This document shows, one piece after another, positions 1 to 56,243 of a DNA stretch of 64,000 bases. Within the stretch, counting starts at the first letter, position 1. Each line of letters starts with the position of its first letter. Below the pieces are notes generated by a model. The model saw only the letters and a list, made by a program, of their open reading frames with translations. It had not been told where the DNA came from and did not search any database. The translations under genes and the position numbers were made by a program. The stretch lies in contig QFXJ01000053.1 of the NCBI GenBank assembly GCA_003402375.1, positions 4,182 through 68,181 of the forward strand, given 5' to 3'. This DNA comes from Candidatus Nitrotoga sp. CP45 (GTDB taxonomy: Bacteria; Pseudomonadota; Gammaproteobacteria; Burkholderiales; Gallionellaceae).

Positions 1-831
1 ATGCGCGTCCCGTGCTCCGATAATCTCACCCTGATGCGCGCCAAGTCGGGCGGAGCGGATGTGCGCATGATCTACTCGACACAGGACGCGCTGAAGATCG
101 CGCGGGATAATCCGGATAGACAGGTAGTGTTTTTCGCCATCGGCTTCGAGACCACCACCCCGCCCACGGCTGTGGCGGTCAAACAGGCGGCAGCCGAGGG
201 GTTGAAGAACTTTAGCGTTCTGTGCAACCACGTGCTGACTCCGGCGGCGATGCATGCGATTCTGTCTGCAGAGGGTGGCGTGGCACTGGACGGATTCGTC
301 GGCCCGGCGCATGTTTCCACCGTTATTGGCAGCAAACCGTATGAAGTGTTTGCCGACGATTACGGCAAACCGGTGGTGATCGCCGGATTCGAACCGCTCG
401 ATGTGATGCAGGCAATACTCATGCTGATACGCCAGATCAATGATGGCCGTGCAGCAGTAGAAAACGAATTCACTCGCGCGGTGACACGCGAAGGCAATCT
501 CAAGGCACAGGCATTGGTTGAAGAGGTGTTCGAGTTGCGCGAGGTGTTTGAGTGGCGGGGCTTGGGCAGTATCCCTCACAGCGCCTTGAAACTGCGGCCT
601 GAGTTCGCCGAATTCGACGCAGAGCTGAAATTCAGCATCAATTATGTGACCGTGCGCGATCACAAGGCATGCGAATGCGCCGCTATCCTGCGCGGCGAAA
701 AACGTCCGCAGGAGTGCAAGATATTTGGCACGGTTTGTACGCCGGACAATCCGGTCGGTTCCTGCATGGTGTCATCGGAAGGCGCGTGTGCCGCGCATTA
801 CAGCTATGGGCGTTTTCGGGATGCTGCTTAG
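1..831 (+). CDS. hypD: Hydrogenase maturation protein HypD (5'-truncated by window edge)
   Basis: Motifs FFAIGFETTTP, GFVGPAHVS, GFEPLDV and C-terminal CECAAILRG..P.ECKIFG..CTP..PVGSCMVSSEGACAAHY. MRVP is normally internal, so the N-terminus lies upstream. Confidence 0.97.
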   Translation: MRVPCSDNLTLMRAKSGGADVRMIYSTQDALKIARDNPDRQVVFFAIGFETTTPPTAVAVKQAAAEGLKNFSVLCNHVLTPAAMHAILSAEGGVALDGFVGPAHVSTVIGSKPYEVFADDYGKPVVIAGFEPLDVMQAILMLIRQINDGRAAVENEFTRAVTREGNLKAQALVEEVFELREVFEWRGLGSIPHSALKLRPEFAEFDAELKFSINYVTVRDHKACECAAILRGEKRPQECKIFGTVCTPDNPVGSCMVSSEGACAAHYSYGRFRDAA

Positions 832-865
832 TGAACAGGGCTCTATGTGATTCGTGTTGGGTAAC

Positions 866-1211
866 CCTTCGATGAGTTCAAGATGAAAAGTAAGCTTAGA
901 ATTCTTTTATCCTTCGACAGGCTCAGGACGAACGGATTTTTTTAAGTCGGTTTGCTCTTAGCTCAGGACGAACGGATTTTTGGATTTCACCGTTCCTTAA
1001 GCTCAGGACGAACGAGTTTATGAATTCCGCCACTCTTTAAGCTTAAGACGAAGGGGTTTATGAATTCCGCCACTCTTTAAGCTTAAGACGAAGGGGTTTA
1101 TGAATTCCGCCACTCTTTAAGCTTAAGACGAAGGGGTTTATGAGTTCCTTTCATCTTTGAGCTCTGGGCGAATAGATTTTTGAGTTCCGTTCGTCCTGAG
1201 CTTGTCGAAGG
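866..1211. repeat. REP-like inverted pair enclosing a 40-bp tandem array
   Basis: ccttcgacaggctcaggacgaacgg at 911-935 with an inverted copy at 1187-1211; units start at 921, 961, 1001, 1041, 1081, 1121, 1161; degenerate copy at 866-890. Confidence 0.93.
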
Positions 1212-1241
1212 ATGGATAGATTGCTAAAAAGGATAAATGAG

Positions 1242-1577
1242 ATGTTTTGGGTGTACATTCTCCGCTGTGCTGATGGTAGTTATTACACCGGCCATACCGA
1301 CAATCTTGAAAGGCGTATCGGCCAGCACCATGCCGGAGAATGCGAGGGTTACACCGTAACGCGCCGTCCGGTGGAGCTTGCTTGGTCTCAGGAGTGTGTC
1401 ACGCGGGTAGATGCCTTATCGGCAGAGATGCAGATCAAAGGCTGGAGTCGCAAGAAAAAAGAAGCCATGATGTGCGGCGACTGGACGGAAGTTTCTCGCT
1501 TGGCTAGAAGTAAATCCGCTCATCCTTCGACAGGCTCAGGACGAACGGATTTACTTCTTGGGGAGGTTGAAAATTGA
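1242..1577 (+). CDS. GIY-YIG nuclease family protein (small stand-alone, YhbQ-like)
   Basis: WVYILRCADGSYYTGHTDNLERRI..H and E.QIKGWSRKKKE motifs; purine-rich RBS before ATG 1242. Confidence 0.93.
   Translation: MFWVYILRCADGSYYTGHTDNLERRIGQHHAGECEGYTVTRRPVELAWSQECVTRVDALSAEMQIKGWSRKKKEAMMCGDWTEVSRLARSKSAHPSTGSGRTDLLLGEVEN
1524..1548 (+). repeat. REP-like copy inside the 3' end of the GIY-YIG gene
   Basis: Exact match to 911-935; encodes the tail HPSTGSGRTD. Confidence 0.93.
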
Positions 1578-1605
1578 TTACCCACTTCTATTTCATATAG
1601 AGCCA

Positions 1606-2655
1606 ATGAATATAATCAAACCAAATAACTCGCGCCCGCTTGATTTCAAGCAGGGACGGGTAGAGATGTCGCATGGTTCCGGTGGGCGCGCCATGGCACA
1701 ATTGATCGCCGAGTTGTTTACTGCAGGTTTTGATAATGTATATCTGGCACAGGGCAACGATGGTGCGTTGCTGCCGCCAATTACCGGGCGGCTGGTGATG
1801 TCTTGCGACGGCCATGTCGTGTCGCCGTTGTTCTTCGCGGGCGGCGATATCGGCTGCCTGTCGGTGCATGGCACCATCAACGATGTTGCGATGATGGGAG
1901 CGAGGCCGTTGTATCTGGCGGCTTCTTTCATACTCGAAGAAGGCTTTCCCCTCGCCGATCTGAAACGCATCGTCGCGTCCATGGCGAACGCTGCAAGAGT
2001 CGCGGGTGTACCCATCGTCGCGGGTGATACCAAGGTAGTGGAACAGGGCAAGGGCGATGGGGTGTTCATCACCACTACCGGAGTCGGTGTGGCACGTGAG
2101 GGTATTACTCTGTCTGGCGATCTTGCGCAGCCGGGCGACACAATTCTGCTGTCCGGCACGATAGGGGATCACGGCATGGCGGTGCTTTCGCAACGTGAAA
2201 ACCTGACTTTCGATGCGCCCATCGTGTCGGATACGGCGGCATTGCATGGGCTGGTCGCAGCCATGCTGGATAGCGGAGTTAAGCTGCGCGTGCTACGCGA
2301 CCCGACGCGCGGCGGACTGGCGACGACTCTCAATGAGATCGCCAAGCAATCCGGCGTGGGCATGATGCTGCATGAATCCGCCATTGCGATGAATCAGCCG
2401 GTTGAAGCAGCCTGTGAGTTTCTCGGGCTGGATCCGCTATATGTCGCCAACGAAGGCAAGCTGGTAACCATTTGTGCGCCGGAGGATGCCGGACGCTTGC
2501 TTGAAGTGATGCGCGCTCATCCGTTGGCTCATCAGGCGGCCATCATCGGTGAGGTCACGGAAGATGCCCATGGATTCGTGCAAATGATCACCAAGCTCGG
2601 TGGCCGTCGTATCGTTGATTGGCTGGCAGGTGAGCAATTGCCAAGGATCTGTTGA
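1606..2655 (+). CDS. hypE: Hydrogenase maturation protein HypE
   Basis: MSHGSGG, DIGCLSVHGTINDVAMMGA, RDPTRGGLATTLNE, LYVANEGK, C-terminal GEQLPRIC. Start set at MNIIKP. Confidence 0.97.
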   Translation: MNIIKPNNSRPLDFKQGRVEMSHGSGGRAMAQLIAELFTAGFDNVYLAQGNDGALLPPITGRLVMSCDGHVVSPLFFAGGDIGCLSVHGTINDVAMMGARPLYLAASFILEEGFPLADLKRIVASMANAARVAGVPIVAGDTKVVEQGKGDGVFITTTGVGVAREGITLSGDLAQPGDTILLSGTIGDHGMAVLSQRENLTFDAPIVSDTAALHGLVAAMLDSGVKLRVLRDPTRGGLATTLNEIAKQSGVGMMLHESAIAMNQPVEAACEFLGLDPLYVANEGKLVTICAPEDAGRLLEVMRAHPLAHQAAIIGEVTEDAHGFVQMITKLGGRRIVDWLAGEQLPRIC

Positions 2656-16059: not shown

Positions 16060-16533
16060 ATGCAAAAAATCACTACCTGTTTATTGTTTAGCGGGCAAGC
16101 CGAGGAGGCAATGCACTATTACGTCTCTATTTTTAAAAACTCTAAAATATTAAGCGTGACTCACTACGGCAAAGGCGCGCCTATGCCAGAGGGCACAGTG
16201 ATGACCGCAAATTTTGAGCTGGAGGGACGCCAATTTATGGCGCTCAACGGGCCGATGTATAAATTTTCACCTGCGACTTCCTTCGTCGTGAATTGCGAAA
16301 CCCAGGAAGAAGTAGAATACTACTGGGACGCATTGGTCGCGGACGGCAAGCCCAGCCAATGCTCGTGGCTGGACGATAAATACGGCGTGTCATGGCAGAT
16401 TGTTCCCAAGCAACTCATACAATTGATAAGTGACCCGGACCCTGTGAAAGCAGGGCGTGTGATGCAAGCAATGATGACTATGTCGAAGATCGTGATTGCA
16501 GATATACAGCGAGCTTACGACGCGAACTATTGA
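16060..16533 (+). CDS. VOC family protein (PhnB / 3-demethylubiquinone-9 3-methyltransferase-like)
   Basis: MQKITTCLLF, F.ALNGP, CETQEEVEYYWDAL, CSWLDDKYGVSWQIVP. Confidence 0.9.
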   Translation: MQKITTCLLFSGQAEEAMHYYVSIFKNSKILSVTHYGKGAPMPEGTVMTANFELEGRQFMALNGPMYKFSPATSFVVNCETQEEVEYYWDALVADGKPSQCSWLDDKYGVSWQIVPKQLIQLISDPDPVKAGRVMQAMMTMSKIVIADIQRAYDANY

Positions 16534-16556
16534 TTAGGCCGGATTATGTTTGAAGT

Positions 16557-16614
16557 CCGTTCGCCTTGAGCCTGTCGAAAGGTGAATGGGCTTCGACAAG
16601 CTCAGCCCGAACGG
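16557..16614. repeat. REP-like inverted doublet (GIY-YIG-associated family)
   Basis: ccgttcgccttgagcctgtcgaa ... cttcgacaagctcagcccgaacgg. Confidence 0.85.
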
Positions 16615-16719
16615 AGTTAATACTTCACCGTGCCTGATCAATAAGTAGCACATCAACAGGTGGTACGCGCGCGAAGTAAATAATTTTATTATTTATCAAA
16701 AAATTTAGGAGAATTAACC

Positions 16720-17187: not shown

Positions 17188-17228
17188 ATCAACAACCATT
17201 ACCTTTGAGAAGACTACGCTTAACAAGT

Positions 17229-17309
17229 CCGTTCGCGTTGAGCTTGCCGAAACGTACCACTTGCAAATCAATAACTTGCAAGTTTATTCGACAGGTGCAG
17301 CTCGAACGG
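17229..17309. repeat. REP-like inverted doublet with spacer, between convergent genes
   Basis: ccgttcgcgttgagcttgccgaa ... ttcgacaggtgcagctcgaacgg. Confidence 0.75.
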
Positions 17310-17335
17310 AGGGAGTTGTTCAGCATTACCCTAAG

Positions 17336-33956: not shown

Positions 33957-34032
33957 TCCTAACCAAGCACTCACGACTCTAAATGAAATAAAGTGAGCGA
34001 TCAATCTTCAACTTCCAGGATAAGAAGTCGAT

Positions 34033-34321
34033 CCACCCGTCCTGTAATTGTCGAAGGATAAACAAAAAAATTCCGTCCAATTGCCGCTCACCATGGCTTC
34101 TTATAACTTGAATCCGCCCTTCTTTTTTCTTGCGGTTCTAACCCTTAATTTGCATCTCAACCGACAAGGCATCTTCCCGCATGACACACTCTCCTGCAAC
34201 CGAGTAAGCCTCGCTGCTGTATAACCCTCTCACTCCCCAGCCTGGCTAGCCGATGCGCCTCTCGAAAGATTGCCCGATATAATAACTACCGTTAGCCTAA
34301 CAAAAGTAGAATATACATCCA
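34033..34321 (-). pseudogene. Decayed GIY-YIG nuclease with downstream degenerate REP
   Basis: Across frameshifts and stops: WMYIL..ANGSYYIG..ERRIG*..AGE*EGYT..ECVMREDALSVEMQIKG*NRKKKE; REP remnant tccttcgacaattacaggacgggtgg at 34033-34058. Confidence 0.82.
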
Positions 34322-34403
34322 CTACAAATCACATAAAACTATATTAATTAATAACATACCCATAACGAATGTATCTATAAATCTGAAATCTCTCACTTAT
34401 AGC

Positions 34404-39564: not shown

Positions 39565-39596
39565 AAAAAACCCGGTTAGCTTACAGCTAAACCGGG
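39565..39596 (-). terminator. Intrinsic terminator in the metZ leader (riboswitch expression platform)
   Basis: CCCGGUUUAGC-UGUAA-GCUAACCGGG followed by U6. Confidence 0.8.
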
Positions 39597-39601
39597 CTTC
39601 A

Positions 39602-39656
39602 CCCGCTTTAGCTGTATTTATAAAGCGCCCGCAAGCTGTTCCTCAAATCGGCGCTT
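39602..39656 (-). ncRNA. SAM-II riboswitch aptamer
   Basis: Minus strand GCGCCGAUUUG..UUGCGGGCGC..AUAAAUACAGCUAAA matches the remembered SAM-II pattern GCGCUGAUUU..UUGC..GCGC..AUAAAUGUAGCUAAA; upstream of metZ. Confidence 0.85.
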
Positions 39657-39962
39657 ATATGAAACTAACACTTGCCGCGCCGCGTTGTCAACTCCAATTG
39701 CCATGATACTAGAGGGCACCGCTAAAGGCATCCAGGCTGTGTAATATGAAGTAATCAGCCTCAAGCATTAGTCTCACAAAGTGCTGGAATGCAGAACATT
39801 ATTTCAGGTATTCTTTAAGCAGGAGGTGCGCTACACTAAAATAGTCGATGTAACACTTTATTATCGCTGTTGCATTTCGAATTTAAATCCGCGCTACCTC
39901 TTATAAGGGTATAAATCCTTGCGGCGTTCAAAATGCAGGAATTAATCAACGGAGAAAATGCC

Positions 39963-56168: not shown

Positions 56169-56243
56169 CCGCATTAAGCTTGCCGAACATACATCTTGAA
56201 ATCAATAACTTTAAAATTGCTCCAACAGGCCCAGCCAGAACGG
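56169..56243. repeat. Degenerate REP-like doublet similar to 17229-17309
   Basis: ccgcattaagcttgccgaa..gaaatcaataactt..caacaggcccagccagaacgg. Confidence 0.55.

Follow-up and report, generated by a model that had tools for sequence, protein, structure and literature searches.

SsnA of Neisseria and its relatives (cd10448), which are GIY-YIG enzymes with a single domain, cut single-stranded DNA beside a directional hairpin repeat, NTS/SRM, which flanks their own ssn gene and is also dispersed through the genome (Chenal 2025, PMC11893778). The authors of that work point out that this layout resembles insertion sequences and repetitive extragenic palindromes (REPs) with their REP-associated tyrosine transposases (RAYTs), report that SsnA reduces transformation by DNA bearing its repeat, and propose Ssn nucleases for use as site-specific single-stranded-DNA cutters (PMC11893778). 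Here we analyse a 64,000-nucleotide stretch of Candidatus Nitrotoga sp. CP45 (contig QFXJ01000053.1, positions 4,182 to 68,181; hereafter the window, in whose coordinates features are given) that contains a small GIY-YIG nuclease gene between hypD and hypE. We propose that window positions 832–1605 are probably one copy of a small selfish cassette, in which the GIY-YIG gene is framed by inverted copies of a cognate hairpin and the nuclease would nick DNA as directed by that hairpin. The general principle of a nuclease paired with a repeat is already published for Ssn, and the locus described here is a sister pairing with its own nuclease clade and its own hairpin. In the searchable literature we found neither a description of this nuclease clade with its CCGTTCG hairpin nor the hairpin sequence.

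The closest described parallel is Ssn/SRM, ahead of REP/RAYT. Both the Ssn enzymes and the window nuclease are single-domain GIY-YIG proteins of about 95–110 amino acids, and in both cases inverted directional hairpins frame the gene and are dispersed in the genome. The window clade differs in its hairpin, which combines CCGTTCG with the loop TGAGCYTGTCGAA where Ssn has a CGTC-tagged palindrome, and in its protein, which belongs to another clade, separate in a tree and 31% identical to SsnA of N. wadsworthii. In REP/RAYT systems (REPtrons), inverted imperfect palindromes similarly flank a single gene, with many repeats per gene copy, and form dispersed doublets. However, the RAYT enzyme is an HUH/Y1 (IS200/IS605-like) tyrosine transposase and not a GIY-YIG nuclease, the window repeat has no GTAG tag, and inheritance of the window cassette looks horizontal, patchy and decay-prone whereas REPtrons persist vertically over long times. 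The CGTC- and GTAG-tagged REP superfamilies (Di Nocera et al. 2013, PMC3733652) are also short tagged palindromes found in many phyla, often as intergenic inverted dimers, but the window hairpin, with 5′ CCGTTCG and a long conserved loop, fits neither tag class. Like an insertion sequence or a miniature inverted-repeat transposable element (MITE), the insert has terminal inverted repeats (839–865 and 1565–1604; the inverted hairpins qualify too). Unlike an insertion sequence, it encodes a GIY-YIG nuclease alone, and no recognised transposase or recombinase was found in it.

The hypD–hypE insert and its hairpins

The window opens with the 3′ part of hypD (1–831, plus strand; PF01924, E 2e-116), which ends in a TAG stop codon at 829–831, and hypE follows at 1606–2655 (plus strand; AIRS domains PF00586 and PF02769). 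Between them lies an insert of about 775 bases (832–1605, plus strand). An earlier note on this DNA had rightly placed a nuclease gene between the two hyp genes and drawn the unit as 866–1577; the insert reaches further on both sides and has outer terminal inverted repeats. The left repeat, GGCTCTATGTGATTCGTGTTGGGTAAC (839–865, plus strand), matches the reverse complement of the right repeat (1565–1604, minus strand; reverse complement GGCTCTATATGAAATAGAAGTGGGTAATCAATTTTCAACC, also given as GGCTCTATRTGA...GGGTAA), which finishes one base ahead of the hypE ATG. Outer repeats of the left-end type occur again at C23:100402 of this genome and also at locus L002, and the right outer-repeat module recurs at L001–L003, L006 and L016.

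Three copies of a hairpin repeat lie inside these outer ends. The earlier note had reported a 25-mer, CCTTCGACAGGCTCAGGACGAACGG, at positions 911, 1187 and 1524, and each is genuine: the plus-strand copies at 911–935 and 1524–1548 are exact, the minus-strand copy at 1187–1211 has one mismatch, a fourth at 16557 has three, and the number of matches expected from dinucleotide-preserving shuffles is 0. The repeat as a whole is a 41-nucleotide stem-loop with 5′ CCGTTCG, 3–4 covarying pairs and an asymmetric loop, T-GA-N5-TC-GAA; CCGTTCG in the 5′ arm and T-GA-GCYTG-TC-GAA in the loop hardly vary, and variant hairpins carry an additional helix within the loop. In an alignment of 91 distinct copies from DNA beside homologous genes, the four loop-proximal pairs form in 96–98% of sequences, with CG-to-GC and TA-to-CG swaps in either direction, and the outer pairs form in 47–79%. 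The covariation score is 0.310 against 0.164 in shuffled alignments (0 of 500 reach the observed value) and at most 0.133 in slid-partner controls. Many G·T pairs occur on the CCGTTCG strand only, which suggests that this is the strand that folds. No Rfam family matched the hairpin, whether judged by the gathering threshold or by E ≤ 10.

When a covariance model of the 41-nucleotide repeat (R1) was run over the 2.8-Mb genome, the three best matches all surrounded the nuclease gene. Copy 1 (900–940, minus strand; 52.3 bits, E 6e-16) has the TTCGAC orientation on the plus strand and contains the exact 25-mer at 911–935. Copy 2 (1182–1222, plus strand; 50.9 bits), in the CCGTTCG orientation, lies directly 5′ of the gene and folds by pairing 1187–1196 with 1210–1219 around a loop at 1197–1209. 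Copy 3 (1513–1553, minus strand; 59.8 bits), the top match of the genome, is inverted relative to copy 2 and overlaps the 3′ end of the open reading frame (ORF). Between copies 1 and 2 stretches a degenerate hairpin array (945–1186) with weak R1 matches at 945–980 and 984–1020 and a 40-bp tandem repeat of 3.8 copies at 997–1148 (Tandem Repeats Finder). This tandem array differs in length between populations: a contig from metagenome run X6 joins 1015 to 1096 and so has lost 80 bp of it, and locus L002 is without the array.

The ORF at 1212–1577 matches the GIY-YIG family PF01541 with 66.8 bits (cut-off 22.6; E 2e-18) and encodes a protein of 111–121 amino acids in which Pfam finds this single domain; NCBIfam returned no match for the protein. 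An AGGA ribosome-binding sequence lies at 1230–1233, and the true start is probably ATG 1242 and not the alternative upstream ATG 1212, because homologs open with MFWVYIL and ATG 1212 falls inside the 3′ arm of the left hairpin; the gene would thus occupy 1242–1577 (plus strand) and encode about 111 amino acids. The nuclease is under strong constraint, and all 26 sequences compared, which come from several bacterial lineages, share the catalytic-type residues Y15, Y24/Y25, R35 and E72 (two tyrosines, an arginine and the metal-binding glutamate). The conserved domain stops near codon 98 (counted from 1212), beyond which the tail differs between homologs; here the C-terminal tail (..HPSTGSGRTD..) is the right hairpin translated in frame. 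In some homologs the stop codon comes before the hairpin; the repeat is therefore an element at the nucleic-acid level, not a motif of the peptide. Translated copies of the repeat read as tails of the types ...PSTSSGRT, FDKLR.NG and PFVLSLSK.

The closest solved structures and named relatives of the nuclease are UPF0213 (YhbQ/YazA) proteins, represented by structures 1ZG2 (E 2e-13) and 1YWL (E 1e-11) and by B. subtilis yazA (40% identity); the matches to these structures place the fold of the protein. In a small tree with a weak backbone, which does not resolve the window clade as monophyletic, the window proteins form a tight cluster outside both the SsnA type (clade support 100/100) and the UPF0213 group (clade support 90/97). 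The UPF0213-like genes examined, namely the genome's own paralog on C19 and genes of N. lactamica and N. mucosa, differ further in not being framed by the window hairpin.

The empty hypD–hypE site that the earlier note had suggested seeking in relatives exists. A contig from metagenome run X2 passes from position 829 to 1606 with 776 bases left out and a single G in between, and so gives the site without the insert as TAG followed directly by ATG. Among 80 hypE loci, hypD and hypE abut or overlap in many from Gallionellaceae relatives (L088, L091, L093, L094, L096, L097 and L102; HypE 81–86% identical). The insert is common to the two closest genomes, L001 and L002/L081, and at L084 a hairpin-only insert occupies the same junction. 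In the window, the right tail of the element (1565–1605) stands in place of the ATGA-type stop/start overlap of empty sites, so hypE translation now relies on sequence that the element supplies. A consensus scan of this tail called no outward promoter, and reading its weak TTGATT-16-TATAGA as one would be speculation only.

The same junction holds other sequence elsewhere. At L085, L092, L101, L105 and L113, from other Gallionellaceae and relatives, the hypD–hypE gap (about 1770–2500 per locus) carries a different small ORF of 127–146 amino acids with the sequence ..MTDAEALLW.LLRNRR..KFRRQHP.GRYILDFYC.., some copies of which finish in a repeat-like PLPQAGEG tail. The sequence of this ORF looks like that of a DUF559 or Vsr-type endonuclease. 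Small nuclease cassettes appear to have landed at the hypD–hypE junction repeatedly.

Pairing of nuclease and hairpin across bacteria

The association of this nuclease with its hairpin extends well beyond Nitrotoga. A protein search returned 7,986 related clusters, and we analysed 80 genomic loci encoding proteins of 57–93% identity from Beta-, Gamma-, Alpha- and Deltaproteobacteria, Nitrospirota, Chloroflexota, Binatia, Cyanobacteria and Campylobacterota, with names including Nitrotoga, Methylobacter, Geobacter, Sphingomonas, Nitrospirota, Dehalococcoidales, Binatia, Stenomitos and Sulfuricurvum. Immediately 5′ of the gene, 64 of 78 loci have a hairpin in reverse orientation; at its 3′ end, 61 of 79 have one in forward orientation; and 55 of 77 have both, against a background hairpin density of 0.09–0.11 per kb per orientation. 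By a second definition of the flanks, the hairpin is present on either side in 72 of 76 loci and on both sides in 58. The earlier note had named a lack of REP enrichment at homologs as the result that would speak against its proposal; the enrichment is in fact clear, with 72 of 76 loci flanked where the background is about 0.1 per kb per orientation. The hairpin family is also present, in numbers from 2 copies to at least 150, in all 25 nuclease-bearing genomes tested. Plasmid and phage collections yielded few distant or single matches only. One 64%-identical cassette copy sits on a 1666-bp contig of a Nitrososphaera metagenome-assembled genome (L048), an archaeal bin, and reflects either a binning error or transfer into archaea.

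These counts bear on one alternative, that the repeats are ordinary intergenic REP-like or terminator-like palindromes and that a small gene merely happens to lie in repeat-rich DNA. REP-type repeats do accumulate between genes, and in relatives other repeats and small genes, unrelated to these, lie between hypD and hypE. Yet the position and orientation of the hairpin are fixed relative to the gene in 55–58 of about 77 loci from many lineages, at about 40 times background, and specificity is reciprocal, with SRM at 0 of 76 window-type loci and the window hairpin on both sides in 2 of 75 SsnA-type loci. We therefore regard coincidence as very improbable.

The same comparison separates the window clade from Ssn. 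The published criteria for Ssn are a BLAST match to SsnA at E < 1e-10 with about 75% coverage and a protein of at most 150 amino acids, and the SRM motif, HGTCWYN(0-2)YYVSBRHN(0-5)WNVSBRGN(0-2)RNCYNB, is sought within 500 bp of the gene (PMC11893778). We used as SsnA reference the N. wadsworthii homolog (L347), which is flanked by four NTSvar copies and stands in for N. meningitidis SsnA. The only small GIY-YIG genes of N. lactamica and N. mucosa, drawn from a scan with the NTS pattern, had also been considered as proxies and were rejected, being YhbQ-like and without flanking repeats. The window protein, with a single domain and at most 150 amino acids, is of Ssn size, and its match to the reference (31% identity over 85 amino acids, 33 bits, E 7e-8 in a one-sequence database) falls short of E < 1e-10; as a control, the genome's own paralog on C52 scores 139 bits against the same protein.

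SRM flanks none of 76 window-type loci and 64 of 75 SsnA-type loci (38 on both sides), the latter close to the 71% of genes flanked, and 42% flanked on both sides, given in the paper (PMC11893778). R1 hairpins show the opposite distribution, flanking 72 of 76 window-type and 11 of 75 SsnA-type loci (both sides, 58 versus 2). Across the Nitrotoga genome the SRM pattern has 9 matches, none near the window gene and none on its hairpins. By every test run, the window nuclease is, as judged from its sequence, not a member of Ssn.

NTS-like repeats (CGTCATTCCCGCG..CGGGAATCCAG) do occur in Gallionellaceae, in the hypD–hypE gaps of L086 and L090 and in five copies in this genome. One of these (C52:72097-72124) lies 190 bp 3′ of the SsnA-type GIY-YIG paralog (C52:71686-71904), so two nuclease/hairpin systems coexist in one genome; the NTS-flanked genes at L246 and L247 are also of SsnA type.

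Relics and gene-less copies in the Nitrotoga genome

The earlier note had pointed to a frameshifted paralog at 34033–34321 (minus strand), and this is a genuine decayed copy in which the downstream repeat and the tail have kept their relative position. About 77% of its columns are identical to the intact gene, and it carries in-frame stops, frameshifts and a 22-nucleotide insertion. Homology continues beyond the stop codon, first through the repeat, here a degenerate right hairpin, and then through about 55 nucleotides of tail. The element as a whole spans 33975–34403 (minus strand) with its right outer repeat at 33975–34016, found as the outer-repeat match C54:38156, and an uncertain left end. 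A tblastn search of the genome found a single intact nuclease gene, a pair of gene relics on its contig and a pair of tail relics elsewhere. The right-end module is present in at least 7 places, among them a gene-less mini copy of about 165 bp (C54:82251-82416) that lies about 14 kb past the end of the window and retains only the right and left outer ends of the cassette. A gene relic lies at C54:81421-81659. The earlier note had proposed that nuclease and REP move as a unit, and this gains support from the empty site, from the at least 7 element ends or relics and from the same cassette at unrelated loci in many lineages.

R1 finds 59 hairpins in the genome, most of them paired as inverted doublets within several MITE-like families. 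Of the free doublets claimed in the earlier note, two hold up and the third, near 56169, is a degenerate relic below the R1 threshold. The first is a doublet at 16552–16619, formed by R1 matches at 16552–16592 (plus strand; 46.1 bits) and 16579–16619 (minus strand; 39.1 bits) and lying in a gene-less element of 118 bp (16527–16644) with CTATTGAT-type ends; the second (17224–17314), of a different subfamily, has an R1 match at 17224–17264 (27.2 bits) and a weak one at 17286–17314. The 118-bp element belongs to a MITE family of 96–129 bp with CTATTGATnnGGC-type terminal repeats, often beside TA, which accounts for about 90 ends genome-wide; some copies of this family carry an R1 doublet in the middle and others do not, and no full-length partner element was seen. 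Elsewhere in the window, at 39587–39664 (minus strand), Rfam gives a match to the SAM-II (SAM_alpha) riboswitch (RF00521, 37.4 bits against a gathering score of 36).

The abundance of gene-less doublets with the same arms raises the alternative that doublets spread by other means, such as a DDE transposase acting on the outer inverted repeats or replication slippage, and that a free-standing nuclease gene homes into them. Doublets would be cut and the gene copied in by repair, so that it ends up between two inverted hairpins. The hairpin-only insert at the hypD–hypE junction of L084 is what such a history could leave, as are the hairpin-rich genomes without a nuclease and the many hairpins in MITEs with separate terminal repeats, and the 57–93% identity of the nuclease across distant lineages suggests horizontal spread. 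Against homing, the gene relics in this genome carry the outer ends and tail of the element itself and not the ends of the common doublet families, and no pair of identical doublet sites differing by the presence of the gene was found. Nor was the DNA-binding domain of known GIY-YIG homing endonucleases (I-TevI or Seg type) found in the nuclease, for which Pfam gives PF01541 alone. We consider homing unlikely, though a serious competitor.

Distribution, proposed mechanism and implications

Of 61 genomes sampled evenly from the order, 21 have the hairpin and 14 have at least 5 copies of it. Close homologs of the nuclease are present in 4 of the 61, and homologs of at least 65% identity are confined to the hairpin-rich genomes G000, G038 and G007. 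Hairpins flank the homologs of 65–73% identity and also the pseudogene in G035; beside distant GIY-YIG genes and the paralogs in this genome they are absent. The distant GIY-YIG genes in G041, G028, G012 and G047 were considered as servants of the same hairpin and rejected, as none is hairpin-flanked.

A domesticated host function, of the kind proposed for Neisseria SsnA, would make the nuclease a single-stranded-DNA restriction enzyme or a regulator acting on hairpin-bearing incoming or replicating DNA, with the flanking repeats a relic of a mobile past or a means of self-regulation. SsnA does lower transformation by repeat-bearing DNA (PMC11893778), and the strong conservation of catalytic residues and the single intact copy in this genome would suit such a role. 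A maintained gene would hardly be expected, however, to show so patchy a distribution, to survive as pseudogenes in G026 and G035 and as several decayed copies here, or to be inserted inside an operon junction that is intact in relatives. These features argue for a selfish element rather than a maintained host gene, and we rate domestication as rather doubtful. Both homing and domestication nevertheless stay alive, because some hairpin families are orphans in genomes that have no nuclease and because the cassette and the MITEs each have outer repeats of their own.

Returning to the selfish cassette, we infer that the nuclease binds, cleaves and mobilises its hairpin. By analogy with Ssn, the nuclease would recognise its own hairpin folded on single-stranded DNA, on the CCGTTCG strand, and would nick beside it. 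Such nicks could let host replication or repair copy hairpin-bounded segments, both the cassette and the gene-less doublets, to new sites; alternatively, they could act on incoming single-stranded DNA. On this analogy, nicking of single-stranded DNA as directed by the hairpin is likely, and mobilisation through such nicks is possible. The earlier proposal that the nuclease may maintain or spread its repeat is plausible.

Several observations weigh against this reading. Hairpin-rich genomes without a homolog at E ≤ 1e-5 include G055 (101 copies), G039 (29), G017 (23) and G052 (21), and G026 and G035 keep pseudogenes only, so hairpins persist, or spread, without the nuclease. Many hairpins lie inside MITE-like elements with their own CTATTGAT-type ends, and the cassette too has outer inverted repeats; an unrelated transposase acting on these outer ends could be the mover of cassette and MITEs alike. 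GIY-YIG domains cut DNA, but strand joining is not a known activity of theirs, which leaves transposition without a mechanism. Finally, the one insertion site does not establish a target-site duplication: TGAA occurs at 832–835 and 1607–1610 where the empty site reads TAG-ATGAAT, and this may be a chance match.

The boldest form of the proposal is that the clade and its hairpin constitute an autonomous mobile element of 0.4–0.8 kb that moves itself and its doublets by hairpin nicking together with host replication and repair. We hold this full version only tentatively and think it improbable as it stands. If true, it would rank among the smallest known bacterial mobile elements, its sole protein a nuclease of about 100 amino acids with no DNA-binding, transposase or recombinase domain, and it would represent a route of transposition apart from those of DDE, HUH, serine and tyrosine enzymes. 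GIY-YIG/hairpin pairs would then form a second modular world resembling REP/RAYT, with orthogonal specificities, the pair described here and Ssn/SRM being found together in one genome.

For annotation, the cassette accounts for the insert within the hyp operon, for ORF tails that are really repeat sequence and for several pseudogene fragments of this genome. More broadly, the pairing would bear on how short repeats spread without a classical transposase. If the nuclease recognises its own hairpin, small GIY-YIG/hairpin partnerships would be not one family, Ssn, but a parallel and mutually specific set, each pair a candidate for cutting single-stranded DNA site-specifically at a new recognition sequence. 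Such partnerships would shape intergenic DNA in many bacterial lineages and would explain the very widespread repeat that surfaces in the translated tails described above.

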